Below, one piece after another: positions 19,732 to 55,512 of a stretch of DNA of 64,000 bases. The translations under genes and the position numbers were made by a program. Source of the stretch: Pirellulaceae bacterium. GTDB taxonomy: Bacteria > Planctomycetota > Planctomycetia > Pirellulales > Pirellulaceae. Numbering within the stretch: position 1 is the first letter of the stretch; each line of letters starts with the position of its first letter. The stretch is from contig JBGSHW010000084.1 in NCBI GenBank assembly GCA_041751975.1, positions 41,745 through 105,744 of the forward strand, given 5' to 3'. The notes beneath the pieces were generated by a model, which ran no database searches, was not told the DNA's origin, and saw only the letters and a program-made list of their open reading frames with translations.

Positions 19732-19924
19732 CGGTTGGGTCTCTGGGGTCAATTTTTTGCTTAAGCGGGACACGGTCGTTCCCAGTCCATGTGGAAGTCG
19801 GCTGCCAATCATCGGCCGCTGGGTGTTGGATTATAGGTAATTCCGAGCCATAATGCGGGCCCGATCGCGGTTGGCAGCCTCCGAATCAACACCTGCGAAA
19901 CCTCTAACTTTACGGCGTGGCATT

Positions 19925-21478
19925 ATGCAAGTTGGTCTAAAGCGAGAAGGCACCCAGCGAGAAGGCACCCAGCGCGTGGGCATCTTGGCGTTGCTTCACG
20001 AGTCCAATACGTTTTTGGCTGAGCCGACCAGCTTAGCGCGCTTCCACGAAGATCTGTACGTGGAGGGTGAGGCGCTGCGCGAGCGGCTGGCAGAGAGTCA
20101 TCATGAAATCGGTGGCTTCTTCAGCGGTCTTGCCAACTCAGCCAACTCAGGTAACTCGGCCGGAATGCAGAACTTGGAAGTGATTCCACTGTTTGCCGCC
20201 CGCGCCACTCCCTCCGGTCCCATTGCCGCCGAGGCGTTCGATTTTCTGGTTGCGCGGATGCTGGAACTGCTCGCACAGCAACTGCCGCTGGATGGTTTAC
20301 TGGTTGCCGCGCACGGCGCGGCCGTCAGCCAGAATCACTTGGATGCAGATGGCTATTGGTTGAGCCGCGTACGGCAAGCGGTGGGGGCAGAGGTGCCCAT
20401 CATCGCTACTTTGGATCCCCACGCGAACTTGTCGCAAGCCATGGTCGACGCCTGCGATGCACTCATCGCCTATCGCACGAATCCGCATCTCGATCAACGG
20501 CAGCGGGGCGAGGAGGCGGCCAAGCTTCTGCTGGCGACGCTGGCCGGCGACGTACGGCCTTGCATGGCTGCCAGCTTTCCTCCGCTGGTGATCAATATCG
20601 AACGGCAAAGTACCGCTGAACCCCATTTGAAAAAGATTCTCGATCTCGCGGATGAACAACGTAATGAGCCGAAAGTTCTCTCCAACAGTTTGATCCTTGG
20701 GTTTCCTTATGCGGACGTCGCCGAGATGGGAGCGGCCACCATCGTGATTACGGATGACGATCCCGAGCTGGCAAAACAGTTAGCGCACGAACTATCGCGG
20801 CAACTGTGGGACGACCGCGCGCAGATGCTGGGGGTGCTGACCGACGTGGAGCAGGCGCTCGAATTGTGCGCGGCCGAGCCCGCTCAGCGCACGTGCTTGC
20901 TCGATATGGGAGACAACGTGGGAGGAGGTTCGGCGGCGGATGGAACGGTCATTGCCGCAGCGCTCTGCCGCCGGAACTTGGGCCCCGCTTTTGTCTGTTT
21001 GGTGGATCGCGCGGCGGTTGAGGCTTGCACGTTGGCCGGTGTCGGAGCCAGTTTGGAACTTTCCCTGGGAGGTCATACCGATACGCTTCACGGCGAGCCG
21101 CTCCGCGTGCGGGTCCAGGTCGACTCGTTTCACGCTGGCATCTTCCACGAGACCTTGCCCAGGCATGGCGGCATCACTCAATTTGATCAAGGGGACACGG
21201 TAATTGTGCATGCTGCGGAGCATCCGCTGACGATCATGCTCACCTCGCGCCGCATGGTCCCGTTTAGCCTTAATCAGCGCATCGCCTTTGGTGTGCAACC
21301 GGAGCAGTTTCGCGTGCTGGTGGCCAAAGGAGTGCATGCACCCTTAGCAGCTTATCGCGACGTGTGCGAGCGCTTTGTCCGCGTCAACACGCCTGGCATT
21401 ACCTGCGCCGACCTGAACCAGCTCCAATTCAACAACCGCCGCCGCCCCCTCTTCCCCTTCGAGCCAGCAGATTTTTAG
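19925..21478 (+). CDS. M81 family (MlrC-like) metallopeptidase/amidohydrolase
   Basis: HESNTF, AAHGA, TLDPHAN, YRTNPHLD, DMGDNVGGG and VAKG motifs. Confidence 0.92.
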   Translation: MQVGLKREGTQREGTQRVGILALLHESNTFLAEPTSLARFHEDLYVEGEALRERLAESHHEIGGFFSGLANSANSGNSAGMQNLEVIPLFAARATPSGPIAAEAFDFLVARMLELLAQQLPLDGLLVAAHGAAVSQNHLDADGYWLSRVRQAVGAEVPIIATLDPHANLSQAMVDACDALIAYRTNPHLDQRQRGEEAAKLLLATLAGDVRPCMAASFPPLVINIERQSTAEPHLKKILDLADEQRNEPKVLSNSLILGFPYADVAEMGAATIVITDDDPELAKQLAHELSRQLWDDRAQMLGVLTDVEQALELCAAEPAQRTCLLDMGDNVGGGSAADGTVIAAALCRRNLGPAFVCLVDRAAVEACTLAGVGASLELSLGGHTDTLHGEPLRVRVQVDSFHAGIFHETLPRHGGITQFDQGDTVIVHAAEHPLTIMLTSRRMVPFSLNQRIAFGVQPEQFRVLVAKGVHAPLAAYRDVCERFVRVNTPGITCADLNQLQFNNRRRPLFPFEPADF

Positions 21479-21491
21479 GTTATCCCGAGGC

Positions 21492-21529
21492 ACTCGTACT
21501 CCTACTCCTACTCCTACTCCTACTCGTAC
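21492..21529. repeat. TACTC(C/G) hexamer tandem array
   Basis: actcg-tactcc-tactcc-tactcc-tactcc-tactcg-tac, 14 nt after the mlrC stop. Confidence 0.92.
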
Positions 21530-21612
21530 CCCGGCTCTGCCTGGGCACGCACTGTATTGAGGCTCCTGCCTCACTTGCGAGCTCTAACGTCGCAGCGATA
21601 GCTTCCTCCACA

Positions 21613-21937
21613 CTAGTTACTTGATTCGCCCGAAACCAAGTCCCACTCTTTCGTAACAGCTAGGCGAGCCGCCCAAGTACGAAGGTATGCATAGTCGATT
21701 TTTTCACCCTGTATCTTGAGAACACTTCGAATGTCGCGAACATGCTTATCCGACGGGCCCTCTTGGTAGTACTTCAGCTTCATCAAGATGGCATCTTCGG
21801 GTGAAGCAAAGCGCACTGTCATTCCATCGAGAATTGGCAATTCGCGTGTGCGTTCCATTCTTGATTGGTTGAACTCAGACTCAGGTGCAACCATGAAATC
21901 AACTTTCAGACCCGAAGCGGGTTGAATCAAGTTCCAT
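21613..21937 (-). pseudogene. N-terminally deleted nucleotidyltransferase-like gene (C-terminal half only)
   Basis: The 105-aa remnant (IQPASGLKVDF...ASPEDAILMKL...KHVRDIRSVL...IDYAYLRTWA) lacks the N-terminal G-S...DxD core. An out-of-frame ATG GAA CT (ME...) overlapping the upstream gene stop is joined directly to TTG ATT CAA. Confidence 0.6.
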
Positions 21938-22136
21938 GCGACATCCTTTGGGCGACTAGCCTATTTTGTTCCTCTTTCGACAGGCCGGGGTTCTCCGCAG
22001 CAACGATACGTTCGATCATCCGGCGCGCCGATCGCCACATTCCCCACGCAATCTTTAGTCGCTCGGTTTCGGTTTTAGTGGCCAGGACAGCAACCATTTC
22101 AGGGGTGATGTCAGCATCGATGGCTTGTGGGTTCAT
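21927..22136 (-). CDS. Small helical protein partnered with the nucleotidyltransferase-like gene (antitoxin-like)
   Basis: 69 aa MNPQAIDADITPEMVAVLATKTETERLKIAWGMWRSARRM...RMSHGT; overlaps the downstream gene. Confidence 0.7.
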   Translation of the reverse strand: MNPQAIDADITPEMVAVLATKTETERLKIAWGMWRSARRMIERIVAAENPGLSKEEQNRLVAQRMSHGT

Positions 22137-22446
22137 GGGAAATCTAACACGTTGCAATAAGCGATAAACCGGAAGGGTGACGAGGCATTGGACTAGCGGT
22201 TCGAAGGTTTCGAGTCGATTGGGTGGTGCTTGGGCTCGAATGTCCGAGGGAGCACCGATACGAACTCGCCTCAGCCTATCAAACTGTGGGCATTTTCGTA
22301 AGTTGTCGCTTGCCACAGCCAATTGATGCTTGCCTTTAACAAGGCTCCTGCGCCCGCCTCTCTATGTAGAGATTCCCCTCGGGATGTTGTATGATGGAAG
22401 GCGAGTGCTCTATATCTAATTGGATTTTCGGGTTGCGAGAGTCGAG

Positions 22447-22503
22447 CGATTGTCCCAATCGCTTTGGAAACGATTGCTTTGGAAACGATTGGGACAATCG
22501 TTT
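22447..22503. promoter_or_regulatory. Putative multi-site LacI-family operator array
   Basis: 15-bp perfect inverted repeat CGATTGTCCCAATCG / CGATTGGGACAATCG, and four AAnCGnTT cores at 22457, 22468, 22483 and 22496, upstream of the 22581 operon. Confidence 0.55.
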
Positions 22504-22580
22504 TACACTGAAAGACGCCTACCCCCTTACCCTACCTGTCCCTGTTTCCTACCTGAATCTTTTGCCTACCGAACATTGCG

Positions 22581-25073
22581 ATGATGCTACGCTTGCTTCT
22601 ATTGCTCAGTACGATTGCATGCGCGCCGGCAACGGTGAGCGGTGATGACTTGGTTTTCAGCGACTTGGTTTTTAGCGATGATGACCTGCGGTACTTCGAA
22701 CGCAAAATCCGCCCGATCCTCGTCGAACATTGCTACGCTTGCCACTCGAGCGAAGCCGATGTGCTGCACGGTGGACTGCAGTTCGATGACCACTTGTGGC
22801 GGACCGAAGGCAGCGACAGTGGGCCGACGGTAATCGCCGGCCAGCCCGAGCAGAGTTTGCTCATCGAGTCGATCGAATACGCCGGTGGCATGCAAATGCC
22901 CCCTAAGAGCAAATTGCCTGAGGCGGAGATTCGGGAATTGACCGAGTGGGTTCGACGCGGCGCACCCTTTCCCAAAACGGATGCCGCTGCCAAACCACGC
23001 GTTCAGGTGGACTACGACGAGGGACGCAAGTTCTGGTCGTTCCAACCGGTGCAACTCCAGCCTCTGCCGGAGGTCGCCACGGCGCACTGGCCGCAGACGC
23101 GCGGCGATTATTTTGTGCTGGCCGGCATCGAGCGCGCCGGTCTGCAGCCGGCTGTTCCCGCCGACCGAGCGACTTTGATTCGTCGCCTGAGTTTCAATTT
23201 GACCGGCCTTCCACCTTCGCCCGAAGAGGTTCGCAACTTTGTCGAAGCTGGCTCTGCAGCGGCTTACGAACAGTTGCTCGATCGCTGGCTGGCTAGTCCC
23301 GAGTACGGTGAAAAGTGGGGGCGAATGTGGCTGGATTTGGCTCGCTATACCGATGAAACGGAGAGCTGGCTGTTGCAAGAAGGGCAATCGCACTTCTATC
23401 GCGATTGGGTCGTTGAGGCCTTCAACAAGGATCTTCCCTACGACCTTTTTATCCACCAGCAACTTGCCGGCGACTTGCTCCCCGATGCTCAGCCCGCCGA
23501 TCTGGCGGCGCTGGGATTCGTCGGCTTGAGTCCCACCTACTGGAAAGAACTGCAACTCCCCTGCGAAGTCATCAAGGTGATCGTGGCGGATGAATGGGAG
23601 GAACGGGTGGACGCGGTCACAAGCACTTTTCTGGGGCTGACCGTGGCCTGCGCGCGGTGCCACGACCACAAATTCGACCCGATCAGTGCCGCGGACTACT
23701 ACGCTTTGGCCGGTGTGTTCGCCAGTTCGCGTCAAGTTGGCCGACCGCTGATCGCTGAAGAATTTTACAGGCCGGTCCGCGACGCAAAAGCCGAACTAGC
23801 GAAATTGGAACCCGAGTTACCGAAACTCAACGCGGAAGTCGCCCGACTCAACAAAGAGCTTGAGCAAGTGGTTGCACCTGTAGTTAGCGAAGCTATAGTT
23901 AGCGATGCCGTGGTAAGCAATGAACAAGCTGAAAAGCTCAAGCCAACTGAGATCAAGCCAGCTGAGATGTTGCGAGCCGAGTTGGTTCAAACCGAAGAAA
24001 AGCTGGCTGAGGTGACCCAGCGGATCGCGGCGCTCAAGGCAACTCCGGAGTTCGACGCGCCCTTAACCAGCGCTTTGTCCGAAGAGTCGCTGCATGTGGA
24101 GCGGGCGGGAGAAAAGCCGCAGGATGGCACGCGGCTCGTCTATCGCCCCGAACCGCAAGATTTGCCACTGTTTTCGCGGGGGGATCCCAATCGTCCCGGC
24201 GAAATTGTCCCACGCGGTTTCCTCACGGTCCTCTCGGCCACTCCACGTCCCTTTACCCAAGGGAGCGGGCGTTTGGAATTGGCCCAGGCGATGACTACCG
24301 AAGCCGCTCCGCTGGCCGCCCGCGTGCTGGTAAATCGCATTTGGCTAGCCCACTTTGGACAAGGCATTGTTGGCACCCCCAGCAATTTTGGAACGCAGGG
24401 AACTCCGCCGACCCATCCCGAGTTGTTGGATGATCTCACCGCTCGTTTCATGGCCAACGGCTGGTCGATCAAGTGGCTGCAGCGTGAGATCTTGCTCTCG
24501 GCGACTTGGCAACAAGCGGTGGAAGCCTCACCGGCCGCCCTGGCCAGCGATCCCGGCAATCACTGGTTGTCGCACATGAATCGTCGGCGACACGACTTCG
24601 AAGCCTGGCGCGATACGATGTTAACGGCCAGTGGTGCTCTCGATCTGACTGTTGGTGGAGCGGCTGTGAATCTCGATGAAACAGGCAGCCACCGTCGCAC
24701 TCTTTACTGTTTGGTGCACCGACGCGAACTGTCAACCACTTACCAGATTCACGACTTTCCCGATCCCAATCAACACAGCCCGCAGCGCTTTAGCACCACA
24801 ACTCCTTTGCAAGGCCTGTATGCGCTCAATGGTCCCTTGTTGGCCGAGCAAGCGCAACTGCTGGTCGAACGTTTGCAACGCGAGCAGCCGCACGAGGACA
24901 CCGCGCACATCGACCGCGCTCACTGGTTGTTGTTCTCGCGCGCGGCGACAGATGACGAACAACAACTGGGGCTCAGTTACCTCGGTGACAGCCAAGGGCA
25001 GACTCGGCTCGATCGCTGGAAGCAATACGCGCATGCCTTGTTAGCCTCCAACGAAACTCTCTTTTTGGATTAA
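22581..25073 (+). CDS. PSD1/DUF1549/DUF1553 planctomycete cytochrome c domain protein
   Basis: Signal peptide; HCYACH, CARCHDHKFDP, RVLVNRIWLAHFGQGIV and THPELLD motifs. Confidence 0.94.
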   Translation: MMLRLLLLLSTIACAPATVSGDDLVFSDLVFSDDDLRYFERKIRPILVEHCYACHSSEADVLHGGLQFDDHLWRTEGSDSGPTVIAGQPEQSLLIESIEYAGGMQMPPKSKLPEAEIRELTEWVRRGAPFPKTDAAAKPRVQVDYDEGRKFWSFQPVQLQPLPEVATAHWPQTRGDYFVLAGIERAGLQPAVPADRATLIRRLSFNLTGLPPSPEEVRNFVEAGSAAAYEQLLDRWLASPEYGEKWGRMWLDLARYTDETESWLLQEGQSHFYRDWVVEAFNKDLPYDLFIHQQLAGDLLPDAQPADLAALGFVGLSPTYWKELQLPCEVIKVIVADEWEERVDAVTSTFLGLTVACARCHDHKFDPISAADYYALAGVFASSRQVGRPLIAEEFYRPVRDAKAELAKLEPELPKLNAEVARLNKELEQVVAPVVSEAIVSDAVVSNEQAEKLKPTEIKPAEMLRAELVQTEEKLAEVTQRIAALKATPEFDAPLTSALSEESLHVERAGEKPQDGTRLVYRPEPQDLPLFSRGDPNRPGEIVPRGFLTVLSATPRPFTQGSGRLELAQAMTTEAAPLAARVLVNRIWLAHFGQGIVGTPSNFGTQGTPPTHPELLDDLTARFMANGWSIKWLQREILLSATWQQAVEASPAALASDPGNHWLSHMNRRRHDFEAWRDTMLTASGALDLTVGGAAVNLDETGSHRRTLYCLVHRRELSTTYQIHDFPDPNQHSPQRFSTTTPLQGLYALNGPLLAEQAQLLVERLQREQPHEDTAHIDRAHWLLFSRAATDDEQQLGLSYLGDSQGQTRLDRWKQYAHALLASNETLFLD

Positions 25074-25132
25074 GCACCATGCACCATCAACGAGTTGGCA
25101 GTCGCTGCGTTCCAACAGACGGAGGAAACGGG

Positions 25133-26545
25133 ATGCCGGTGGACGCGTTCAATCGTCGCCAACTGCTGCAGCAGTTCGGTGGCGGCATGGGCTTGCTCGG
25201 GGCCGCGGCCTTGCTGGCTTCCGGCGGTGAACTCGCCATGGCGGACCCCAGCAATCCAACTGCTGCGAAAGCGACTGCGGGCACGAATCCTGCGACCCAT
25301 TTTCCGCCGCGGGTTAAGCGGGTCATCCACCTGTTCATGAATGGCGGACCCTTTGGCGCCGATTTGTTCGACCCCAAGCCAGCGCTAGCCAAGTTCGAAG
25401 GGCAAAAACCAGCCGGGGCTGATCTCTTGACCGAGCGTCCCACCGGCGGACTGCTCGCCTCTCCGTTTAAGTTCAAGCGGCATGGTGAAAGTGGATTGCA
25501 GATCAGCGAATTGTTGCCTTACCTGAGTCGCCACGCCGATGATCTGTGCGTGCTCAACGCAATGCATGCCGATAATCCGAACCACGGACCCGCGTTGTTG
25601 CAAATGAACAACGGGACCATTACGCCGACGCGACCAAGTATGGGGGCCTGGATGCTGTATGGACTGGGAACGGAGAACCAGGATTTGCCGGGCTACATTG
25701 TGCTCTGTCCAGGGCGGCCGGTCCGTTTCTCCATTTTGTGGAACAGCGCGTTCCTGCCATCGGCCTATCAAGGTACTTACATCAATCATTCCACGATCGC
25801 ACCGGAGCGAATGGTGCCGCATCTCCGCAACGCGCAATGGGATCCGAGTACGCAGCGGCAGCAGCTCGATCTGTTGCAGCAGATGAACGCGAACCACAAA
25901 GCCACTCGGCCAGGTGATTCGGTCTTGGATGCGCGGATCGCAGCCATGGAGACTGCCTACCGTATGCAATTCCAAGGGAGTGAGGCGTTCGATATCTCGC
26001 GTGAGTCGACTGCCACGCGGGAAGAGTATGGCAGCGGACACTTTGCCAACGGCTGCTTGCTCGCGCGGCGTTTGGTGGAACGCGGCGTCCGTTTTGTGCA
26101 AGTCTACTACGGCGATGGCCAGCCCTGGGATACGCACTCGGGGCACAACGAATCGGTCACCAAGCTATGTCTAGACATCGACCGACCAATCGCTGCTTTG
26201 CTGGCTGATCTGAAACAACGCGGCTTGTTGGAGGACACGCTGGTGGTGTGGGGTGGTGAATTCGGTCGCACACCGACTTCGGAAAACGGCAACGGTCGCG
26301 ACCACAATCATCATGGATTTAGCATGTGGATGGCCGGCGGTGGTGTGCGGGGCGGGATGACTTATGGCGAGACCGATGAGTTCGGTTTTAAAGCGCAAGT
26401 GAACAAGATGCACGTGCACGATTTGCACGCTACCATATTGCATCTGCTGGGACTCGATCACCAGCGATTGACCTTTCGACACGCCGGTCGCGACTTCCGC
26501 TTGACCGATGTACATGGCCATGTAGCCCACGAGATTCTTGCATGA
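25133..26545 (+). CDS. DUF1501 family protein (Tat-exported, sulfatase/phosphatase-like fold)
   Basis: NRRQLL Tat motif; VIHLFMNGGP, LARRLVERGVRFVQ, WDTH and GEFGRTP motifs; strong GGAGG RBS before ATG 25133. Confidence 0.94.
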   Translation: MPVDAFNRRQLLQQFGGGMGLLGAAALLASGGELAMADPSNPTAAKATAGTNPATHFPPRVKRVIHLFMNGGPFGADLFDPKPALAKFEGQKPAGADLLTERPTGGLLASPFKFKRHGESGLQISELLPYLSRHADDLCVLNAMHADNPNHGPALLQMNNGTITPTRPSMGAWMLYGLGTENQDLPGYIVLCPGRPVRFSILWNSAFLPSAYQGTYINHSTIAPERMVPHLRNAQWDPSTQRQQLDLLQQMNANHKATRPGDSVLDARIAAMETAYRMQFQGSEAFDISRESTATREEYGSGHFANGCLLARRLVERGVRFVQVYYGDGQPWDTHSGHNESVTKLCLDIDRPIAALLADLKQRGLLEDTLVVWGGEFGRTPTSENGNGRDHNHHGFSMWMAGGGVRGGMTYGETDEFGFKAQVNKMHVHDLHATILHLLGLDHQRLTFRHAGRDFRLTDVHGHVAHEILA

Positions 26546-27495
26546 AGCTGGCTTCTGTACTGACACCGCTTTCCCACACCAACATGCGTTTGGCGGCCCA
26601 GTGCGGCGTGGAAGGGGTGGTGATCCGCTACCCAGGTAGCACACGGGACGCTTTGTTGGCGGCCAAACAAGTGCCCGAAGCGTACGGGCTGGAAGTCTAC
26701 GCAGTGGAAGGCTATTTGCCGATCGAACGCATCAAACTTGGGGCGGCTGGCCAGGATGAAGACCTGCAAGCGGTCAAGTATCTGATTCGCCACATGGGCT
26801 CCGTGGGCATTCCGCTGCTCTGCTACAACTTCATGGCCGGTACCGATTGGGTCCGGACGCAAATGGATGCACCTGAGCGGGGTGGTGCCAAAGTAACCGC
26901 GTTCAATTTAGCCGATGCCCAGCGCGCGGTCTCACTGAATTCACAAGCCCAGATTGAGTTGACCACGATCGAGGCACCCGAGCTGTGGAACCATCTAGAG
27001 CGATTTTTGCAGGAGGTGATTCCCGTGGCCGAAGCGGCTGGAGTTACTTTGGTCATGCATCCCGACGATCCTCCGTTGCCCCTGTTTCTCGGCAAGGCGC
27101 GGATCATGAACTCGGTGGAGAACTTTGAGCGGTTGATGCAGTTGGTACCTAGCCCGCGGAATGCGATCTGTTTTTGCCAAGGGACGTTTGCCACATTGGG
27201 TGTCGATATTCCCCAGACGATCCTTCGCTTGGGAAAGCACATTCAATACGTTCACTTTCGCGACGTCCGCGGTACGGCCGAAGCGTTTGCGGAAACTTTT
27301 CACGACAATGGTCCAACCGACATGGCCGCCGCCATCCGTGCGCTGCGCGAAATAGGCTTTAATGGTCCGCTCCGCCCCGACCATGTTCCGCAATTGGAAG
27401 GTGAGGATGAGGGGGAGCCCGGTTACACCATGCTGGGACGACTGTTCGCATACGGTTACATCCGCGGTCTGCTGCACGCAACGGAGCCGGTGTGA
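26542..27495 (+). CDS. uxuA: Mannonate dehydratase
   Basis: CYNFM, MHPDDPP, FCQG, HFRDV, FHDNG and RPDHVP motifs; ATGA overlap with DUF1501. Confidence 0.9.
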   Translation: MKLASVLTPLSHTNMRLAAQCGVEGVVIRYPGSTRDALLAAKQVPEAYGLEVYAVEGYLPIERIKLGAAGQDEDLQAVKYLIRHMGSVGIPLLCYNFMAGTDWVRTQMDAPERGGAKVTAFNLADAQRAVSLNSQAQIELTTIEAPELWNHLERFLQEVIPVAEAAGVTLVMHPDDPPLPLFLGKARIMNSVENFERLMQLVPSPRNAICFCQGTFATLGVDIPQTILRLGKHIQYVHFRDVRGTAEAFAETFHDNGPTDMAAAIRALREIGFNGPLRPDHVPQLEGEDEGEPGYTMLGRLFAYGYIRGLLHATEPV

Positions 27496-27870
27496 CTCGA
27501 ATTCCTACTCGAACTCCTACTCCTACTCCTACTCCTACTCGAACTCCTACTCCTACTCCTACTCGAACTCCTACTCCTACTCCTACTCCTACTCCTACTC
27601 CTACTCGTACTCGTACTCGTACTCGTACTCGTACTCCTACTCGTACTCGTACTCCTACTCGAATCGTTCAACCTACCATCAACTGCGAATACCGCTGGGC
27701 GGATTCCGAGTACGGCTACGAAAACCGAGTACGAGTAAGAAAACCGAGTACGGCTACGAAAACCGAGTACGAGTAAGAAAACCGAGTACGAGTAAGAAAA
27801 CCGAGTACGAGTACGGCTACGAAAACTGCGTACGAGTAGGAAACGCGAGTACGAGTACGAGAGCAAAAAC
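27496..27870. repeat. Bipartite low-complexity inverted array: (TACTCC/TACTCG/AACTCC)n arm, about 40-nt spacer, then a 19-nt-period CCGAGTAC..GAAAA arm
   Basis: Left arm about 27496-27665 of hexamers; right arm 27706-27870 of CCGAGTACGGCTACGAAAA and CCGAGTACGAGTAAGAAAA units whose CGAGTA cores are complementary to TACTCG. Confidence 0.96.
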
Positions 27871-27900
27871 CAGATCCAAGAGAGAATTTAGATAAGCGAT

Positions 27901-29154
27901 ATGCCCCGCATCACTGCCATTGAAACAGCGATTCCCGACGCGATCATGCCGAACCTGATTTTGGTTCGGATTCATACCGACGATGGCCTGATCGGCTGCG
28001 GAGAAACGTACTACACGCCGCACGCCATCGAGGGTTTGATCCACGAGTGGATGGCGGAACGTTTGTTGGGAGCCGAAGCGACGGACATCGAGGCGCATTG
28101 GCGGTTCTTGTACGAACGCTGCACACCCTTTGGTGCTCCCGGCGCCGAGATGCGGGCCCTGTCGGCGATCGACGTGGCGCTGTGGGACATCCTGGGGCAA
28201 ATGTGCGGACAGCCGATATGGAAATTGCTCGGTGGTGCAGTGCAGCCACGCGTTCGCATTTACAACACGTGTGGTGGTCCAGGCTATGGAGCGCTGCATG
28301 CCCCCGCTTCTTCCGCTGTCGCCAGCAGTGCCGCACCGCGCGCTGTAAAGCATGCCGGCTGGCCCGGCTACGGCGATGAAGGGCAAGCTGGCCCGTTGCA
28401 GGACAATTGGGCATCTTTTCATGCCGCCGGCGACTTGGCGGAGGGGCTGGTCGCTGAGGGAATCACTGGGATGAAGGTCTGGCCGTTCGATCGCTACGTG
28501 CAGCGAGGTGGTTTGTACATCTCAGCCGCCGACGTAGAAGCAGGAATGCAGCCGCTGCGCGAGATTCGCAAGCGGGTCGGAGATAAGATTGAGATCATGA
28601 TCGAAGGGCATGCATTCTTTCAACTGCCGTCGGCGTTGCGGGTGGCGGAGGCGCTGCGAGAGATTCGTCCGTTCTGGTTGGAGGATGTGCTGCGAGTCGA
28701 CCATATTGGGACGCTGGCCGATTTTCGTCGGCAATCGCGTCTGCCGATCGCTGCCAGTGAAATGTTGTTGGGACGCAGTAATTATCTAGCGGTGTTGCAA
28801 GCGGGTGCGGCCGATTATGTCATGATCGATCCCACGTGGGCGGGTGGGATCAGCGAATCGCGGCGGATCATCGATATGGCCCAGACGTTTAATATCCCGG
28901 CGACGATGCATGATTGCACTGGACCGATGACACTTTTCGCTGGCCTGCATTTGTCGGTCGCTTCGGCCAACGTGGTCTTGCAAGAGACGGTCCGCGCCCA
29001 CATCCGGACCTTTTATGAACGCTTGATCGATCGGCAACCGGTGATCGAGCAAGGTTTTCTATTGGCACCGGTCGACCCGGGGCTCGGTACCACTTTCCAA
29101 AGTAGCCTTTTCGAGTCGAGTAGCAATCGCTGCCGGCGTAGCCAAGTGAGTTAA
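27901..29154 (+). CDS. Mandelate racemase/muconate lactonizing enzyme family (enolase superfamily) sugar-acid dehydratase
   Basis: GCGETY, SAIDVALWDILG, MKVWPF, IEGH, WLED, ASE and HDC motifs. Confidence 0.92.
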   Translation: MPRITAIETAIPDAIMPNLILVRIHTDDGLIGCGETYYTPHAIEGLIHEWMAERLLGAEATDIEAHWRFLYERCTPFGAPGAEMRALSAIDVALWDILGQMCGQPIWKLLGGAVQPRVRIYNTCGGPGYGALHAPASSAVASSAAPRAVKHAGWPGYGDEGQAGPLQDNWASFHAAGDLAEGLVAEGITGMKVWPFDRYVQRGGLYISAADVEAGMQPLREIRKRVGDKIEIMIEGHAFFQLPSALRVAEALREIRPFWLEDVLRVDHIGTLADFRRQSRLPIAASEMLLGRSNYLAVLQAGAADYVMIDPTWAGGISESRRIIDMAQTFNIPATMHDCTGPMTLFAGLHLSVASANVVLQETVRAHIRTFYERLIDRQPVIEQGFLLAPVDPGLGTTFQSSLFESSSNRCRRSQVS

Positions 29155-29181
29155 GCCATTCCATCCAACGTTCGTCATCAT

Positions 29182-30456
29182 GTGATCGGCGCCACCACGC
29201 TGGCGGCCGTCATGCTGTACTTGGACCGCATCTGCATCGCTGAAATTGCGAAGGAAGATGAGTTCAAAAGTGCGCTGAGCTTAAGTGAACAGCAAACGGG
29301 GGCTTTCTTATCTGCCTTTTTCTTTAGTTACGCACTGTGCCAAGTGCCCGCTGGCTGGTTATCGGACCGTTTTGGTGCGCGGCGGATGTTACCACTTTAC
29401 ATCTGCATTTGGTCGCTATGCACGATCCTCACCGGCATGGCCACCGGCTTCTTGATGTTGATCATTGCCCGCTTGTTGTTTGGGATATCGCAGGCCGGAT
29501 GTTATCCGACGGCTAACATCTTGATCAAGAACTGGGTGCCGTTGCCGCGCCGCGGAACGGCCAGCAGCATTGTCTCGTTTGGTGGACGATTTGGAGGCGC
29601 GATCGCCCCCTTGCTGACTGCCTGGTTGCTCAAAGATTTCTTGTCGTGGCGGTGGGTGCTGGTGCTCTACGGCTGCGCGGGCTTTATCGTCGCGCTGCAC
29701 TTTTGGCGGATCTTTCGCGAGACCCCCGAGGAGCATCCGCAGGTCGATGAGGCCGAGCGGGCGTTGATTGCGATGGATCCCTCGCTCCCGTTTCGAGATG
29801 CGGTGGGAGAGACTGAGTCGCGGAGCCGAACGCCGGCTAATTTTCCGCCCATTGGATTGTTATTGTGCAGCGGTTCGATGTGGTTGATGAGTGTGCTGCA
29901 GTTCGGGATCAACGTCGGTTGGGTCTTCTTGGTGACCTGGCTCCCAACCTATCTCAAGGATGTCAAGCAAGTGGATCCTAAAATTGGAGGGCTGATGTCC
30001 ACGATCGTCTTGACTGCCGGTATTGTGGGGATGTTATGTGGTGGGCCGTTGACCGACTTTGCCACGAAGCGGCTCGGTCGGCGTTGGGGTCGTACATTGC
30101 AGATGGTGGTCTGTTACAGCATCGCCATCGTCGCCTATCTATCTTGCTTGCGGCTCGAATCGGCTTGGGCGTTCATTGCCGCCGCTGCGTTGATTGCCTT
30201 TGTAACCGACATGAGTGTCCCGGCGATCTGGGCTTACATGCAAGATGTGGGTGGCAAGAACACCGCCGCCGTTTTTGGCTGGGGAAACATGTGGGGTAAT
30301 TTGGGGGCTGCGTTGATTCCGGTGTCCGTCCCTTATGTGCTGAAGCATTGGGACACGAACGGTGATTGGCACGAAGTGTTTTGGCTCTTTTCGTTAGGCT
30401 ACTTAGTCGCCGCCTTGGCAGCGCTCGGCATCAACGCCAATCGCCGCATCGAGTAA
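29182..30456 (+). CDS. MFS transporter (anion:cation symporter / sugar-acid type)
   Basis: YLDRICI, GWLSDRFGARR, NWVPLPRRGTA and FGWGNMWGNLG motifs; about 12 TM; true start uncertain. Confidence 0.93.
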   Translation: MIGATTLAAVMLYLDRICIAEIAKEDEFKSALSLSEQQTGAFLSAFFFSYALCQVPAGWLSDRFGARRMLPLYICIWSLCTILTGMATGFLMLIIARLLFGISQAGCYPTANILIKNWVPLPRRGTASSIVSFGGRFGGAIAPLLTAWLLKDFLSWRWVLVLYGCAGFIVALHFWRIFRETPEEHPQVDEAERALIAMDPSLPFRDAVGETESRSRTPANFPPIGLLLCSGSMWLMSVLQFGINVGWVFLVTWLPTYLKDVKQVDPKIGGLMSTIVLTAGIVGMLCGGPLTDFATKRLGRRWGRTLQMVVCYSIAIVAYLSCLRLESAWAFIAAAALIAFVTDMSVPAIWAYMQDVGGKNTAAVFGWGNMWGNLGAALIPVSVPYVLKHWDTNGDWHEVFWLFSLGYLVAALAALGINANRRIE

Positions 30457-30845
30457 AAGGGAGCGGTCGCCGCGAGCCCCGCTTGCCAGTGTCGGGTTTA
30501 TCACGACTCAGCCGAACGACTTGGGAACGTCTGCAGTGGTCAGCATTCTGTTATGATTTGGAAAACCAATCCATCTGTGAAACCCAAACGCAGGTCGACA
30601 GGCGGGTTGGCGTGAGGGGGTGCAAGCATTAGATTGAGGGCACGGCCTTTGCCAACTGAGATTCCAATCATGGGGATGCCGTGGTTGGCGCCATGTTGGA
30701 TTGCCCAACCGCGACTTCCAAAGTCGAGCTGCCATTTTCCAGTTAGCGCGTCGTTGGCGTTTTGTGCGTCCCCTGTAAACGAGTTGCAGTTAACTCCACG
30801 TAGCGTTCAACGCTCAGTTCATTGTCCTTTAAGTAGTCGATTTGT

Positions 30846-31820
30846 ATGAGTTTAGATGCAGTTGATATCGATGGAGTAAGGCTCAAGCTGGCGTCCGCGA
30901 TGGCGAATCGGGCCGAATGGATTGGCCAAAAGGAGGTGCTCAAGCAGTTGTTGGCGTGTTGGTTGGTGGTAGATGAGGTCGATCTACCCTTGACGCCGCG
31001 CTTGGTGGGAGTCCCCGGTATTGGAAAAACTGCCTTGGCCATGGCAGCTGCTGCGACCCGCGGTCAAGAATTGTATGTATTTCAGTGCACGGCGGACACG
31101 CGTCCGGAAGATTTACTCGTTACGCCGGTACTTAGCCAACAAGGGACGATATCCTATCACGCATCGCCGCTGGTAACGGCCATGCTTCGCGGCGCCGTCT
31201 GCGTGTTGGACGAAGGGAATCGGATGAATGAGAAGTCTTGGGCCAGTTTGGCCCCACTTTTCGATCAACGCCGATATGTCGAGTCGATTGTGGCGGGGAT
31301 TGTCATTCACGCCAATAAAGATTTCCGTTGCGCGGTGACAATGAATCAAGACGATTCGACGTACGAGATCCCCGATTACATCCTGAGTCGTCTTCAACCG
31401 ACGTTGCCGCTTGGCTTTCCCAATCGTCAAGATGAATTGGCGATTTTGCAGTATCACCTCCCTTTTGCCGAAGCGGACATGTTGGCCATGACGGTCGAGT
31501 TTCTGCAGCGGTCGCATGAATTGCGGTTGGATTTTTCAGCGCGTGATGGCCTAAATCTCCTTCGCTTTGCACTGAAACGCTTAGCCCAAGATCCGACCCA
31601 TCCGCTCAGCAAAGATGCAGCCTGGCGTGAGGCGCTGGAGTTTTGCCTGGGCGAGGATGCGGTTAATCTGGAAGCCTTGGCGGAACGTAAGCGGGGGAGT
31701 CTCGGGGGCAATGCGCTTCCTTTGGGGTTGGGCGATTTCTTTTTCGATCCGGACGATCCACTGCACCCTGACTTTGACGGCGATGATGATGACGATGACG
31801 ATGACGACGAGCGCTACTAA
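30846..31820 (+). CDS. MoxR-like AAA+ ATPase
   Basis: Walker A GVPGIGKT, Walker B VLDEGNR; poly-Asp C-terminal tail. Confidence 0.88.
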
Positions 31821-31893
31821 GGCCCCGTCCCCTTTCTCGCAACCACACCACGACACCCGTCAAAGTTAGTCCGGAAGCTCTACGAAAGACACT

Positions 31894-32703
31894 ATGCCTC
31901 ATTGCTTTACCACATCCGACATTCGAGGCGAATTCGTGTTGCTGGGGACGGGGACATCGGTAGGGGTACCTGCCATCGGTTGCGGCTGCGATGTCTGCCG
32001 CAGCACCAATCCGAAAAACAAGCGAACGCGGTCCTCGGCCATCGTGGGATTACCCGAGGGGAACTTGCTGATCGACACGGCCCCCGAGTTGCGTCTGCAG
32101 TTGGTGCGCGAGAATATCGGAATTGTGCATGCCGTCGCTTATACGCACGAGCACGCGGACCACATTTTTGGTCTCGACGACCTGCGGTTGTTTCCGTTTT
32201 TGTTGCGCGGCCCGGTACCATTGTACTGTGAACCGAATGTCGAACGGCGAATTCGCCACAGTTACGACTACGCCTTTAGCACCAAGCCTCAAACGCATCC
32301 TGGAGCCATCCCGCAGCTCGAACCTCGCACAATTGGCCTAGCACCGTTCGATGTACTGGGAGCCACAATTCGACCGATGCGTTTGCAGCATGGTCCTAAC
32401 TATCATGTGCTCGGCTTTCGCATCGGTAATGTAGCCTACTGCACCGATACGAATTTTATTCCGACGGAGAGCTATAGGATTTTGGATGGCGTCGAGTACT
32501 TTATTGTGGACGCATTGCGTTACGAACCGCATGCCACCCATTTTCATGTCGAAGGTGCGCTGGAGGCGATCGCACGCGTGCAGCCGCGGCAGGCTTATCT
32601 AACCCACGTTTGCCATGATTTGGACTACGATAAAACCTGTGCCGCTCTGCCAAGCAACGTCGAACTCGCGTACGACGGCTTACGCGTCCCGCTTGAGTTA
32701 TAA
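31894..32703 (+). CDS. MBL-fold metallo-hydrolase (PhnP-like phosphodiesterase)
   Basis: GTGTSVGVP, CGCDVC, THEHADH, YCTD and THVCH motifs. Confidence 0.92.
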   Translation: MPHCFTTSDIRGEFVLLGTGTSVGVPAIGCGCDVCRSTNPKNKRTRSSAIVGLPEGNLLIDTAPELRLQLVRENIGIVHAVAYTHEHADHIFGLDDLRLFPFLLRGPVPLYCEPNVERRIRHSYDYAFSTKPQTHPGAIPQLEPRTIGLAPFDVLGATIRPMRLQHGPNYHVLGFRIGNVAYCTDTNFIPTESYRILDGVEYFIVDALRYEPHATHFHVEGALEAIARVQPRQAYLTHVCHDLDYDKTCAALPSNVELAYDGLRVPLEL

Positions 32704-32813
32704 TGGTCGGCGGCCGAGCAACTACAATAATCTCTAACCGACCCATTCCGAGTTACTGCCACCCTTCTCAACCTCGACTTTCCCCGCCGAAACAACTTTA
32801 AGGATGCTGTTCC

Positions 32814-35800
32814 ATGAACAATCCCCCACCACCACGCCCCCCGAAACTATCGCAAACTATTGCCCAGTCGCCCGTTGCCCGCGTCATTTTGGTTTGCGGC
32901 ATGCTGTGCGCGATGTTCAACCAACTGCCTGCGCAGGAATCTCTGGGTAACACTGCCAAGTGGGTGTGGGTGGGTGAAGCGGCCAGCAATCAATCGGTTG
33001 CCCTACGCAAAGTGTTTGAGCTGGAGGGCGAAGTCAAAGAAGCTCAAGTGGCTGTCACAGCGGACAATTGGTGCCAAGTCTTTATCAACGACAAGCTTGT
33101 GACCAGCTCTGACGATTGGGGACAACTAGCAACAGCCGATGTGTCCAAGTTGCTCAGAAAGGGTACGAATGTCATTGCCTTGTTGGCTAAGAACGAGGAC
33201 AGTGCCGCCGGGGCCCTGGCGTATCTGCGTGTTAAAATGGACGACGGTCAACAGTTGGAGGTGGCAACGGACGGCAGTTGGTCCGGTTCGCTGAACACCG
33301 CTGGAGGATGGCAGGAGTTAGCATTCGATGCGAGTGGTTGGGATAAGGCTCGTGAACTGGGGAGCATCGGTCAAGCTGGGTTGCCTTGGTCGGGGCAAGT
33401 TGGGGTCGACGCGCTGGTGGAGGCTTTTCGTAATAACAATGCCGGTGAATACCTGACGCACGTTGCCGAAAACGCCCAAGTACCAGAGGGCTTTAAAATC
33501 GAAAAGATCTATCAAGTCCCACGCTCGATGGGCTCATGGGTGGCACTCACGACCGACCCACAGGGACGTCTCATCGCCTCCGATCAAGGTTCTGCGGGAC
33601 TGTTCATGATTACCCCGGGTCATGGCGACACACCGACGAAAGTAGAACGACTACCGGTAGATCTTAGCGGCGCCCAGGGGCTGCTATGGGCCTTTGATTC
33701 GCTGTACGTTGTCGTCAATGGTGGTGACAAATCAGGCCTGCATCGCTTGACCGATACCGACGGCGATGGACTCGTCGATCACGATGAACATTGCATGTTT
33801 GTACCTGGCGGAGGCGAGCACGGTCCGCACGCAGTTATCCTAAGCCCTGATGGCCAATCGCTATATGTGGCTGCCGGAAATCACACCAAGTTGCCGGATG
33901 CCATTGTCGGCAGTCGCATTCCACAGAACTGGCAAGAAGATCTCTTGTTGCCCCGTCGCTGGGATGCTAACGGGCATGCCGCCGGTATTCTGGCTCCAGG
34001 GGGTTGGATCTGCAACGTCGATCGGACCGGCAAGGAATGGACCGTGTTCAGCATGGGCTATCGCAATCAATATGACATTGCATTCAACGCCGATGGCGAA
34101 CTGTTCAGTTACGATGCCGACATGGAGTGGGATTTTGGCTCCCCCTGGTATCGACCGACCCGCGTGGTGCATGCCACCAGCGGCAGCGAATTTGGCTGGC
34201 GGAGTGGGACTGGCAAGTGGCCCACCTATTACGAAGACTCACTCCCCCCTGCGGTTGACATCGGTCCTGGTTCGCCCACGGGCATCGTGTTCGGAAAGGG
34301 AGCCAAATTCCCGGCCAAGTACCAACGAGCGTTGTTCATTCTCGATTGGACTTACAGCACCATTTACTCGATTGATTTTGCACCTGCGGGTGCGAGCTAC
34401 GTCGGGACCAAGCAAGACTTTGTGACAGGTTCGCCGCTACCGGTCACCGACGCGACGATCGGCCATGACGGTGCATTTTATTTTGCGGCCGGCGGGCGTG
34501 GCACCCAGTCGTCTCTTTTTCGCGTCACGTACGAGGGAAGCGAATCGACAACGGCAGCTGAACTAAGTGACGAAGCGGGGAGCGACTTGCGCGGGTTGCG
34601 TCAACAACTCGAAAGCTACCACGGGACAGTGGATGGTGAGCTGGATACGATCCTCAAGCAACTCGGTCACTCCGACCGTTTCCTTCGTTATGCAGCCCGG
34701 ATTGCCCTGGAAAGTCAGCCCCTTTCTTCATGGCGCGAAACGGTCCTGAAGCTCACCGAGCCCCAAGCGGTGCTCAACGGCATGCTCGCTCTCGCCCGCC
34801 AAGGAGAGCTCAACGACCTAGAGCCCATCGTTAAGAAATTGCTTGAGTTGCCCTATGCAGAAATGGACTTGCAACAACGGCTGACCGGTCTGAGAGTCCT
34901 ACAGGTTGCCTTCGCACGGCGTTCGGATCCGGGGGCGGATGGCAACGGCCAGACAAAGCCAGCACTAGCGGCTGTGTTGCGCGGGCGACTGTTGAAGTTA
35001 CTGGAGAGTGCTTATCCCAACAGCGCATACGAACTCAACGCCGAATTGGTCCAACTACTTGTGTACCTGGAATCGCCGGTCGTGGTAGAGAAAACGCTGG
35101 CCCTCATGCAGCAGCTTGGCGATGAACCGATTCCTGACTGGAGTTATCTTGTCTCCCGCAACGAGGGCTATGGCGGCACCGTGGGCGCGATGCTCGACAA
35201 CATGCCTCCGGCCCGCGCCATCCACTTGGCAGCTGCCCTGCGGAACGTAAAAACCCCTTGGACCCTTGGGCAGCGGGAACAGTACTTCGAGTTCTTTATT
35301 GCGGCGGCCAAACACCCGGGCGGTAACAGCTATGCCAAGTTCTTGGAGCAATTTCGCGACGATGCATTAATGACCTGCAGCGATGCCGAGAAGATTGTAC
35401 TTGAACCGCTGACTGGCCAATCGTTGCTTGCTGCACCGATTGAGTCGACGCCGCCCGAAGGTCCCGGAAGAGTTTGGACCACCAGCGCTGCCTTGGCAGA
35501 GGTGGGCGATAAATTGTCGGCAAGAAATTTCGATGCGGGTAGAAACCTTTTTCATGCGACCAGTTGTGCCAAGTGCCATCGACTCGCCGGCGAAGGTGGA
35601 GCCATCGGCCCCGATCTATCCACCGCTGGCAAAAAGTTCTCGATCCCCGATATGCTCGACGCACTCATTGAACCGAGCAAAGCCATCTCGGACCAGTACG
35701 GTTCACAACAGGTGTTAACCAGCGACGGCACGGTGCTGATCGGACGGGTTGTAGAAATTGGCAAGCAGACGTACGTCTACACGTCCGATCCCGCCGCCAA

Positions 35801-35966
35801 ACCGATCGTACTCTCAAAAGAGGACATTGAGCAAATCCAACCTTCAACTGTTTCGCAAATGCCAGCCGGTTTGATCGATACACTCAACCCCGAAGAACTG
35901 CGGGACTTGATGGCCTACATCATGTCCGCAGGCGATCCGCAGGCAAGCGTCTACCGCAAACGCTAG
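32814..35966 (+). CDS. PVC-type heme-binding putative dehydrogenase (beta-sandwich + propeller + HEAT-like + cytochrome c)
   Basis: GYRNQYDIAFN...YDADMEWD propeller; CAKCH heme motif; GGAIGPDLS. Confidence 0.88.
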   Translation: MNNPPPPRPPKLSQTIAQSPVARVILVCGMLCAMFNQLPAQESLGNTAKWVWVGEAASNQSVALRKVFELEGEVKEAQVAVTADNWCQVFINDKLVTSSDDWGQLATADVSKLLRKGTNVIALLAKNEDSAAGALAYLRVKMDDGQQLEVATDGSWSGSLNTAGGWQELAFDASGWDKARELGSIGQAGLPWSGQVGVDALVEAFRNNNAGEYLTHVAENAQVPEGFKIEKIYQVPRSMGSWVALTTDPQGRLIASDQGSAGLFMITPGHGDTPTKVERLPVDLSGAQGLLWAFDSLYVVVNGGDKSGLHRLTDTDGDGLVDHDEHCMFVPGGGEHGPHAVILSPDGQSLYVAAGNHTKLPDAIVGSRIPQNWQEDLLLPRRWDANGHAAGILAPGGWICNVDRTGKEWTVFSMGYRNQYDIAFNADGELFSYDADMEWDFGSPWYRPTRVVHATSGSEFGWRSGTGKWPTYYEDSLPPAVDIGPGSPTGIVFGKGAKFPAKYQRALFILDWTYSTIYSIDFAPAGASYVGTKQDFVTGSPLPVTDATIGHDGAFYFAAGGRGTQSSLFRVTYEGSESTTAAELSDEAGSDLRGLRQQLESYHGTVDGELDTILKQLGHSDRFLRYAARIALESQPLSSWRETVLKLTEPQAVLNGMLALARQGELNDLEPIVKKLLELPYAEMDLQQRLTGLRVLQVAFARRSDPGADGNGQTKPALAAVLRGRLLKLLESAYPNSAYELNAELVQLLVYLESPVVVEKTLALMQQLGDEPIPDWSYLVSRNEGYGGTVGAMLDNMPPARAIHLAAALRNVKTPWTLGQREQYFEFFIAAAKHPGGNSYAKFLEQFRDDALMTCSDAEKIVLEPLTGQSLLAAPIESTPPEGPGRVWTTSAALAEVGDKLSARNFDAGRNLFHATSCAKCHRLAGEGGAIGPDLSTAGKKFSIPDMLDALIEPSKAISDQYGSQQVLTSDGTVLIGRVVEIGKQTYVYTSDPAAKPIVLSKEDIEQIQPSTVSQMPAGLIDTLNPEELRDLMAYIMSAGDPQASVYRKR

Positions 35967-35996
35967 TTTTGAAGTTGCGCTAATTAGTTGTCAATC

Positions 35997-36070
35997 GTAC
36001 TCGTACTCGAGGCGCATGCGTCGAGTGCGAGTACTGCGGGAGTTGGGGTTCGAGTTCGAGTTCGAAAACC
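35997..36070. repeat. TACTCG-family hairpin plus a GTTCGA repeat tail
   Basis: gtactcgtactcga-ggcgcatgcg-tcgagtgcgagtac (14-bp stem with one G-U pair), then gttcgagttcgagttcgaaaacc. Confidence 0.82.
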
Positions 36071-49115: not shown

Positions 49116-50051
49116 TCAGCCACCGTTTGAAAGAGCTGCGTCGGTATCGCTTGAAGTTGTGCTTGTGCTTGTGCTTGTGCTCGTGCTAGACGATTCCAGA
49201 GAGTTCTGATAGTTCTCATATTCGCGTTGAATTAGAGTCGACATCTGGAAAGCTGACTGCAGTTCCACAGGGTTGAACCAACGCACGTTTCCGGTGAACT
49301 GCGACTCAATACGGTTCTTGGCGGACAGTTCGTTCCAAGATAGACCGTTTGCCATGTGCCATGCTGCAGCCTGGGCCGTATTTTGTGCAAGCCGTCCTTC
49401 TCCCAACAGCTCACAGAGCTTCGCAACACGTGGATCGTCGTTGATTTGTTCAATCGGAACAATTTTGTATTTCATGCGCGGATTGGGATCTTGCTTGCCA
49501 TGCTCGAGGCAGACGCAGGTAACCTTCAGTTTGCCAGCACGATCGGGTGAGACGCGGAACATCCCACCTCCCATTCCTCCCATGCCACCACCCATGCCAC
49601 CCATGCCACCCCCCATGCCACCCATGCCACCCATGCCACCACCCATACCTCCCATGCCACCCCCCATTCCTTGACCGCCACCCATACCACCCATGCCGCC
49701 ACCCATACCACCCATGCCGCCGCCCATACCCCCCATGCCCCCGCCCATGCCACCCATGCCGCCCATGCCCATTTGCCCCAAAATATGCACGGCACCAAAA
49801 GCTTTAGGCATTTGAACGTCAAGCATAGCGTCCGTTTTGTTGCGAATAATTACGGTAGCCTGCGAGGCATCTTTAGGAACAAACTGGACCTCAATAGTTC
49901 CTTCGTCAATGGCTTGGAACAGCTCGACCGTCTTGACCGGTTCGTCCGATTTCTTCTTGTCTTTGCCTCGCGTTGGCTCGGTAGCGAGAGCACTCGTGGA
50001 GAGCACAAACAGCGACATAATGCTTAGGAAAGACCAAACATTGAGTTTCAT
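49116..50051 (-). CDS. Exported hypothetical protein with an approximately 70-aa GGM low-complexity insert
   Basis: Signal peptide; (GGM)n tract; CVCLEHGK motif; ST-repeat tail. Confidence 0.85.
   Translation of the reverse strand: MKLNVWSFLSIMSLFVLSTSALATEPTRGKDKKKSDEPVKTVELFQAIDEGTIEVQFVPKDASQATVIIRNKTDAMLDVQMPKAFGAVHILGQMGMGGMGGMGGGMGGMGGGMGGMGGGMGGMGGGQGMGGGMGGMGGGMGGMGGMGGGMGGMGGGMGGMGGGMFRVSPDRAGKLKVTCVCLEHGKQDPNPRMKYKIVPIEQINDDPRVAKLCELLGEGRLAQNTAQAAAWHMANGLSWNELSAKNRIESQFTGNVRWFNPVELQSAFQMSTLIQREYENYQNSLESSSTSTSTSTSTTSSDTDAALSNGG
49564..49778. repeat. CCCATGCCA/CCACCCATG 9- and 12-nt coding repeat (GGM/GGGM)
   Basis: Degenerate tandem array encoding the Gly-Met tract. Confidence 0.9.
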
Positions 50052-55441: not shown

Positions 55442-55512
55442 GGGTCAGGCCTTGTGTTCGGTGTTCGGCAGTTCACGGATTATCAGTGAACACCGAACAC
55501 AAGGCCTGACCC
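55442..55512. repeat. 25-bp perfect inverted repeat (REP/MITE-like) between convergent genes
   Basis: GGGTCAGGCCTTGTGTTCGGTGTTC - 21-nt loop - GAACACCGAACACAAGGCCTGACCC. Confidence 0.92.

Follow-up and report, generated by a model that had tools for sequence, protein, structure and literature searches.

Three TACTC(C/G) arrays behind stop codons in a Pirellulaceae contig belong to a hairpin-forming repeat family and are probably gene-less relatives of a four-helix-bundle cassette

What are the short TACTC(C/G) arrays that lie just behind three stop codons in a 64,000-nucleotide (nt) stretch of a Pirellulaceae bacterium genome (contig JBGSHW010000084.1, positions 41,745 to 105,744; this whole stretch is called the window below)? 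An initial annotation, made from the DNA letters, had placed one array each after mlrC, uxuA and a heme-protein gene, and had proposed a non-autonomous mobile family resembling repetitive extragenic palindromic (REP) sequences. All three members are confirmed, starting 8–30 nt past the respective stops. With up to one mismatch, the sequence TACTCSTACTCS matches the window 38 times, always within these three elements, compared with 0.30 matches expected and 0/100 shuffles. The arrays are real, gene-less members of a hairpin-forming repeat family, one of them a solo arm and two of them stem-only hairpins, and they appear to be what remains, without the gene, of a probably mobile cassette that has been little studied.

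Element 1 (21492–21529, + strand) is a solo left-type array, ACTCG(TACTCC)4TACTCGTAC, of 6.3 TACTCS units that begins 14 nt past the stop (21478) of an M81/MlrC-like gene (19853–21478); it has no complementary arm and no fold (z ~ −1). Element 2 separates a UxuA-like gene (26542–27495) from an enolase-family gene that starts at 27901. Its left arm (27496–27660, + strand) holds 26 hexamers of the types TACTCC, TACTCG and the variant GAACTC, the array proper (27503–27660) starting 8 nt past the UxuA-like stop at 27495. A 45-nt loop (27661–27705, + strand; GAATCGTTC...GCGGATTC) leads into the right arm (27706–27861, + strand), in which inverted CGAGTACGAGTA units, separated by AGAAAAC or CGGCTACGAAAAC, recur with a 19- or 25-nt period and in which the signature GAGTARGAAAMSS occurs four times (0 expected). 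Element 2 folds into a single long interrupted hairpin (−136.4 kcal/mol, z −8.3). Element 3 starts 30 nt past the stop (35966) of the gene for a 1050-residue protein with a cytochrome-c domain (32814–35966), and consists of a hairpin (35997–36034, + strand) with arms GTACTCGTACTCGA and TCGAGTGCGAGTAC, 14 bp, a 10-nt loop and one U.G pair on the + strand, followed by extra right-type units (36040–36070, + strand) composed of (GAGTTC)4 and a final CGAAAACC. Its 14-bp hairpin has a z of −4.4, and its folding energy is −39.1 kcal/mol on the + strand versus −29.5 kcal/mol on the − strand. The GAGTTC units are the complement of the GAACTC variants in the left arm of element 2, and CGAAAACC occurs three times in the window, every copy within elements 2 and 3. 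The complementary arms and common tail described earlier for two members are present in elements 2 and 3, whereas element 1 lacks a complementary arm. Tandem Repeats Finder returned 6-nt arrays of 6.3 copies at 21492–21529 and 26.3 copies at 27503–27660, repeats with periods of 19–63 nt at 27706–27861, and short hexamer arrays at 35995–36009 and 36040–36065.

These elements have many relatives. A scan for (TACTCS)3 with one genome per species yielded at least 120 loci, and all family counts given here are among the loci listed: 46 fall in Planctomycetota and 9 in Verrucomicrobiota, with several loci in some genomes. In both phyla the hairpin follows the plan (TACTCG)n-loop-(CGAGTA)n. In 24/46 Planctomycetota loci a right arm lies within 200 nt behind the left arm, and in 2/46 the order is reversed; the corresponding numbers for 65 loci of other phyla are 4 and 2, and the matches in those phyla, together with L019 and L051 (L numbers denote individual loci), resemble coding acidic repeats. 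Copies within one genome have loop sequences in common, in both orientations, suggesting dispersal of a defined element rather than independent microsatellite births. Consistent with a multi-copy family, word depth over the arms in metagenomes is 70–1000 times that of the flanks. L032, a locus with a DUF1501 gene, is binned as Chitinophaga but probably belongs to the Planctomycetes–Verrucomicrobia–Chlamydiae (PVC) group. A role as a phage hallmark was considered and ruled out, since only one (L205) of 41 exact matches in viral contigs has the hairpin form.

Many arms are composite, with the form (TACTCG)n TACTC-A-[mini-hairpin]-GG-(TACTCG)n, as in TACTC-A-GCGAAGC-GG-TACTCG, and composite units can be arranged in tandem with a 21- or 27-nt period (L073, L061, L005). 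The mini-hairpin covaries through GC, GU/AC and AU pair types (GCGAAGC, GTGAAAC, ATGAAAT). Across 15 distinct 10-nt spacers pairing is 100%, both pairs covary, and the score was reached in 0/500 shuffles. Longer mini-hairpin stems occur elsewhere (GCCC/GGGC, GTCC/GGAC, GGCG/CGCC); in two contigs binned as Verrucomicrobia (L014, 3816–4109; L048, 2797–2903) the TACTCG unit is found with the longer mini-hairpin GCCC-GAA/GCA-GGGC. A coding role of the intergenic arrays was rejected: their stems covary, and the spacers, at 10–16 nt, do not keep to multiples of three. Neither the eight canonical hairpin loci, where the only Rfam hit was Clostridiales-1 at E 0.4, judged to be noise, nor four cassette loci (see below) matched an Rfam family, and a full-text literature search for the repeat sequence returned nothing relevant. 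Within these Rfam and literature searches, no earlier description of the TACTCG hairpin family was found.

What does a full-length member of this family look like? It is a cassette of ~0.5 kb that encloses a small four-helix-bundle gene of the PF05635/TIGR02436 family. In L101, a left arm is followed by an open reading frame (ORF) that contains the right arm in its 3′ end and that matches TIGR02436, ‘four helix bundle protein’, with an E-value of 2e-18. The L101 protein has more than 7900 homologues at E ≤ 1e-5, and the counts that follow refer to the best 120 clusters of these homologues, which are 81–99% identical and contain PF05635 in all cases, the named ones being from Pirellulaceae or Planctomycetota. 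An EYEY-like tail (EYEYEYRDAEYEYE) is present in 112/120, and the pattern (EY)n-xxx-(EY)n in 98/120, with RDA (78), RGA (8), RKA (4) and others as the middle triplet. This tail is the translated right arm, (GAGTAC)n CGC-xxx-GCT (GAGTAC)n: R and A of the triplet each stand for one half of the mini-hairpin stem, and the middle residue, which varies freely, for its loop. The constraint therefore bears on nucleic-acid structure and not on the protein. At the other end, over-long ORF calls open with ..VLVLSATVLVLVLE.., which is the translated left arm.

The DNA architecture was confirmed in seven cassettes from six genomes, all following one plan. Its 5′ half reads 5'-GTTCGTCAGG..CG(TACTCG)2TACTC-AGYGCAAYGG-(TACTCG)1-5-RAARGATCGnnn-ATG..ORF, so that the left arm lies directly before the ribosome-binding site and ATG, and its 3′ half reads ORF..ATC(GAGTAC)2-3CGCGATGCT(GAGTAC)2..CCTGACGAAC-3'. 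The outer 10-mers pair as an inverted repeat, with the stop codon within the right one. The cassette RNA of L243 is predicted to fold into a ~52-bp terminal stem around the entire ORF (−201 kcal/mol, z −8.2). All 12 cassette contexts and all three window sites lie between protein-coding genes, not in a helix of 23S or 16S ribosomal RNA (rRNA), and 9/12 cassettes are co-oriented with the upstream gene, at 100–260 nt from it. By sequence, the sole relative of the cassette protein in the PDB is 2GSC, a PF05635 representative homologous to Avd of diversity-generating retroelements, according to a review (PMC10053308).

Cassettes are present in the complete genome of Pirellulaceae SH449 (CP197409.1). 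Some cassettes stand as tandem pairs in which each has its own arms (L243, 10001–11038; L268, 2430–3432), in neighbourhoods that look accessory and include a group II intron reverse transcriptase, integrases and ParE/ParD. A second conserved hairpin (CAACGGAGCGGAAATGGCG…CGCCATTTCCGCCCGCTGATCG) lies directly downstream of cassettes (L243, 10452–10530; L255, 10445–10475) and is also seen, as translated sequence, at the tail ends of protein calls that run too long, such as P0017 and P0052.

Gene-bearing and gene-less forms can be connected through a metagenome run, X1, that holds the window itself. Window contigs in X1 have a depth of 18.6–19 and show no differences, and an 8.5-kb X1 contig at depth 18.8 is identical to L101 (0 differences); in further contigs at depth ~19 the cassettes are diverged, and one has internal deletions. 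Outside the window, the signature GAGTARGAAAMSS of element 2 occurs only in the right arm of L101, among 263 loci fetched. Judging from depth and this common signature, L101 and the window very probably come from one genome, and the organism very probably owns full, decaying and gene-less forms. How a cassette may become gene-less is illustrated by L073, where the loop of a gene-less hairpin, ATGACCGAACCAATTTTC, consists of the opening six codons (MTEPIF) of the four-helix-bundle gene joined to a right arm; here the loss of an ORF through internal deletion can be seen directly. Such deletion with retention of the terminal inverted repeats is seen in L073 and in one partly deleted X1 cassette, not in the window copies. 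The loop of element 2 yielded no remnant of the four-helix-bundle ORF, and masked blastn of all loops against the cassettes returned nothing, the ORF start being retained in L073 only. Most stem-only hairpins would have arisen from cassettes by loss of the ORF.

Have the elements been inserted where they now lie? Among loci of 80 relatives of the UxuA-like protein, taken from metagenomes, the syntenic gap between uxuA and the enolase-family gene measures 6–7 nt (L124, L132) or 18 nt (L129), compared with 405 nt in the window, which makes element 2 a derived insertion into a tight intercistronic junction. Over 349 kb of these UxuA-relative loci there are 0 arrays of two or more units, as against three array loci in the 64-kb window, suggesting that the family was amplified in particular lineages. 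In relatives that are ~95% identical, the uxuA site is filled by an array of other length and composition. In one of these, X3, (GAGGCT)3-4 replaces the first 121 nt of the left arm (window 27485–27605) and 127 nt of the right arm are missing; a second hexamer type thus occupies the position of the TACTCS array in that relative. At site 3, relative X5 lacks two GAGTTC units (12 nt), and one low-depth contig is without the whole element. Short-read assemblies break at the arrays. Copies arrive by insertion just after stop codons. Once in place, the arrays undergo rapid change, presumably by replication slippage, and differ between relatives in both length and composition. No target-site duplication was recognisable. 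In these respects the picture drawn by the initial annotation stands: a dispersed, hairpin-forming family with expandable arms near the 3′ ends of genes, with copies in the window that are non-autonomous and with empty orthologous sites in relatives (6–18 nt versus 405 nt between uxuA and enolase).

Taken together, we consider it probable that the arrays are gene-less members of a Planctomycetota/Verrucomicrobiota family whose full form is the ~0.5-kb cassette, built on the plan of an rRNA intervening sequence (IVS) and placed behind protein-coding genes. With no promoter evident within it, the cassette would depend on transcription that reads through from the upstream gene, and its arms would pair in the transcript to form a long double-stranded stem, a likely substrate for RNase III and a barrier to 3′ exonucleases. 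The cassette mRNA could then be cut out while the upstream mRNA would retain a protective stem, and for gene-less copies this influence on RNA structure would be all that is left, if even that. In an RNA run, assembled metatranscriptome contigs upstream and downstream of element 2 have depths of 23.4 and 21.7, and these equal depths are weakly consistent with read-through. We also advance, as a tentative and somewhat doubtful extension, that the cassette is a free-living relative of the rRNA IVS: a promoter-less selfish element that settles behind stops, is expressed by read-through and released by RNase III, and encodes an Avd-like protein aiding its own spread via RNA or single-stranded DNA (ssDNA), with the gene-less hairpins as offspring resembling miniature inverted-repeat transposable elements (MITEs).

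Several observations weigh against the cassette origin and the RNA-level role proposed here. An ORF remnant is absent from 3/3 window elements, so their descent from a cassette is argued from the arms alone. Only one of the 46 array-seeded Planctomycetota loci contains a cassette, and the gene-less hairpins could accordingly be the primary element, with the gene as a passenger. Mismatches in the stems of the seven cassettes are not skewed towards G.U on the sense strand (17 versus 24), a result that lends no support to RNA-level selection on this strand and fits a role as ssDNA or as a cruciform equally well. Finally, heuristic gene calls at 32 PVC loci with two callable flanks place 11 elements between convergent, 15 between co-oriented and 6 between divergent genes, a split not significantly different from random; in 12/15 co-oriented pairs, by the same calls, the element lies nearer to the upstream stop.

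The lack of strand bias among wobble pairs would also suit REP-type elements or their doublets (REPINs), in which hairpins are recognised as ssDNA and spread in trans by a REP-associated tyrosine transposase (RAYT) or another HUH-Y1 transposase encoded elsewhere. Extragenic location, multi-copy inverted doublets, genome-specific variants and empty sites all fit such elements, and mini-hairpins of the d(GCGAAGC) type are exceptionally stable in DNA. Rhodopirellula baltica has, in addition, been reported to carry many tyrosine-transposase genes with flanking repeats (PMC3733652). The assignment to REP or bacterial interspersed mosaic elements (BIMEs) and a RAYT, made in the initial annotation, is nevertheless not supported: the GTAG/CGTC foot tag is absent, the units being GTACTC and the spacer context TACTC-A-[hairpin]-GG, and the published planctomycete class-3 TnpA(Y1) REPs (CnGA foot, CCGAGCCGCGACCGTAAGGGAGCGGA) and GTAG-20/21 repeats of R. 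baltica differ in sequence. Jackhmmer searches with E. coli RAYT (query checked against 4ER8) and IS608 TnpA (query sequence unverified) found no HUH-Y1 homologue in 1.6 Mb of loci and window, and the gene that the arms actually bracket encodes a four-helix bundle, not a transposase. We regard a REP-type system as unlikely. Less credible still are plain hexanucleotide microsatellites, born independently by slippage and neither mobile nor functional. Copy number and hexamer type do vary between ~95%-identical relatives, element 1 is unpaired and assemblies break at the arrays, as microsatellites would have it; yet the same hexamer, arm order (24:2), covarying spacer and genome-specific loops recur across phyla, a 405-nt structured insert stands in place of a 6-nt intercistronic gap, and three arrays in 64 kb contrast with 0 in 349 kb of relatives. 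The present data already argue against this reading, to which we attach hardly any weight.

Two further explanations were considered. Transcription terminators or attenuators selected by the host at 3′ gene ends would account for stable stems directly past stop codons and for the bias towards the upstream stop in co-oriented pairs, and canonical terminators in the region are no commoner than in shuffles, so that other 3′-end signals must exist. However, a U tract after the stem is missing on both strands, with pyrimidines prevailing in the 5′ flank and purines in the 3′ flank, and no terminator-like site was found at any window element on the + strand. Moreover, element 2 sits within a gene pair that is tightly coupled in relatives, with equal RNA contig depths on both sides, and 6/32 elements lie between divergent genes, making a terminator function very improbable. 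Alternatively, the arrays could be binding sites for a protein that recognises their sequence or structure, such as the four-helix-bundle protein of the cassette itself, acting on DNA or RNA with the hairpin as a secondary feature. Composite units spaced every 21 nt, about two helix turns (L073, L005, L105), and mini-hairpins with conserved structure and variable loop would agree with this, as would the nucleic-acid binding of Avd-type four-helix bundles in diversity-generating retroelements (PMC10053308). The right arm in the window, with its 19- or 25-nt period and no mini-hairpin, does not, and we judge binding-site arrays to be quite unlikely as the main explanation.

The initial annotation had further suggested that the family may mark insertion sites for small cargo genes, and had pointed to a toxin–antitoxin-like pair bordering one member, here element 1. 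The general idea holds in that the full form encloses the PF05635 four-helix-bundle gene, but the pair itself (21613–22322) was rejected as cargo: an array lies on one side only, with no second arm, and the breakpoints of deletions in relatives fall inside the ORFs, not at the array. On the − strand, the region comprises two small overlapping ORFs, one with a weak, sub-threshold match to the Rv0078B antitoxin and nothing in NCBIfam; internal deletions of 541 and 592 nt occur in two ~95%-identical relatives, and the pair is intact in others. Abutting element 1 is a different dispersed repeat (21523–21577; …CCCCGGCTCTGCCTGGGCACGCACTGTATTGAGGCTCCTGCCTCA…), which numerous contigs of four metagenomes match in either orientation, among them one of RNA with a depth of 252. 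A hairpin at 22438–22509 (GATTGTCCCAATCG…CGATTGGGACAATC), whose loop holds a 15-nt tandem repeat and which lies upstream of a PSCyt gene, is likewise dispersed, with a word depth of 234 in the RNA run. Genes neighbouring the elements in the window encode PSCyt1/PSCyt2/PSD1 and DUF1501 domains, which identify a planctomycete; Rfam at the gathering threshold gave no family match in the window, and no rRNA was found there. Elsewhere in the window are a perfect 25-nt inverted repeat with a 21-nt loop (55442–55512; GGGTCAGGCCTTGTGTTCGGTGTTC) that contains a 7-nt tandem repeat, a long CCACCCATGCC-type repeat (49539–49790) with periods of 9, 12 and 21 nt whose − strand would encode a Gly/Met-rich stretch, and an 18-nt tandem repeat of 3.8 copies that are 98% identical (58936–59004).

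The three window elements are ordinary members; it is their family that is worth pursuing. The origin, mobility and function of rRNA IVSs and their S23p/PF05635 ORFs have been open questions for more than 30 years (PMC4990558), and here an IVS-like architecture occurs outside rRNA, in many copies. One sample, and very probably one genome, combines full, partly deleted and gene-less forms, and there are empty as well as filled orthologous sites, so that these questions become accessible to comparative genomics and to RNA and protein experiments in culturable Pirellulaceae. There is also a practical side, as the arrays break short-read assemblies and cause over-long or artefactual ORF calls, with EYEY tails and VLVL leaders, in planctomycete annotation.

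Among known systems, the closest behaviour appears to be that of REPIN- or MITE-like repeats and of the short tandemly repeated repetitive (STRR) arrays of cyanobacteria, and the closest architecture that of the 23S rRNA IVS rather than REP. Like REP, BIME and REPIN sequences, TACTCG elements are extragenic, non-autonomous, multi-copy hairpins near 3′ gene ends, often inverted doublets with genome-specific variants; unlike them, they have no GTAG/CGTC tag, no RAYT in 1.6 Mb, microsatellite arms, and a full form that brackets a non-transposase gene. STRRs are tandem short repeats in intergenic or intercistronic positions with the capacity to fold into hairpins, as in the hupS–hupL spacer; effects on the stability of transcripts or on translational coupling have been suggested for them (PMC2670836). 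Both are dispersed short repeats between genes that form hairpins, with 7-nt units in STRRs and 6-nt units here; they differ in that TACTCS is the hexamer of a planctomycete, whereas the heptamers are those of heterocyst-forming cyanobacteria, for which no gene cassette is described in PMC2670836. With MITEs and BOX-type modular repeats the family has in common deletion derivatives that keep terminal inverted repeats and a variable number of internal modules, but it shows no recognisable target-site duplication and no known transposase, and its parent encodes only a four-helix-bundle protein.

The IVS of Coxiella 23S rRNA comprises 428 nt with a 28-bp terminal stem and an S23p ORF in the loop, and is excised by RNase III (PMC4990558). 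The TACTCG cassette resembles the IVSs of Coxiella and Leptospira (PMC4990558; bioRxiv 10.1101/2024.02.27.582315) in its size of ~0.4–0.5 kb, its long stem of terminal inverted repeats, its PF05635 ORF in the loop, its lack of a transposase and the existence of ORF-less forms. It departs from them in standing behind protein-coding genes, in stems made of tandem hexamers with a covarying mini-hairpin, in the translation of its right arm, and in its many, often gene-less copies. The IVS stem is a substrate of RNase III, as the TACTCG stems are predicted to be. An IVS-type stem is present in L243 (~52 bp), in the seven cassettes and in window elements 2 and 3; the PF05635 ORF in the loop, absent from the three window elements, is carried by their full-length relatives.

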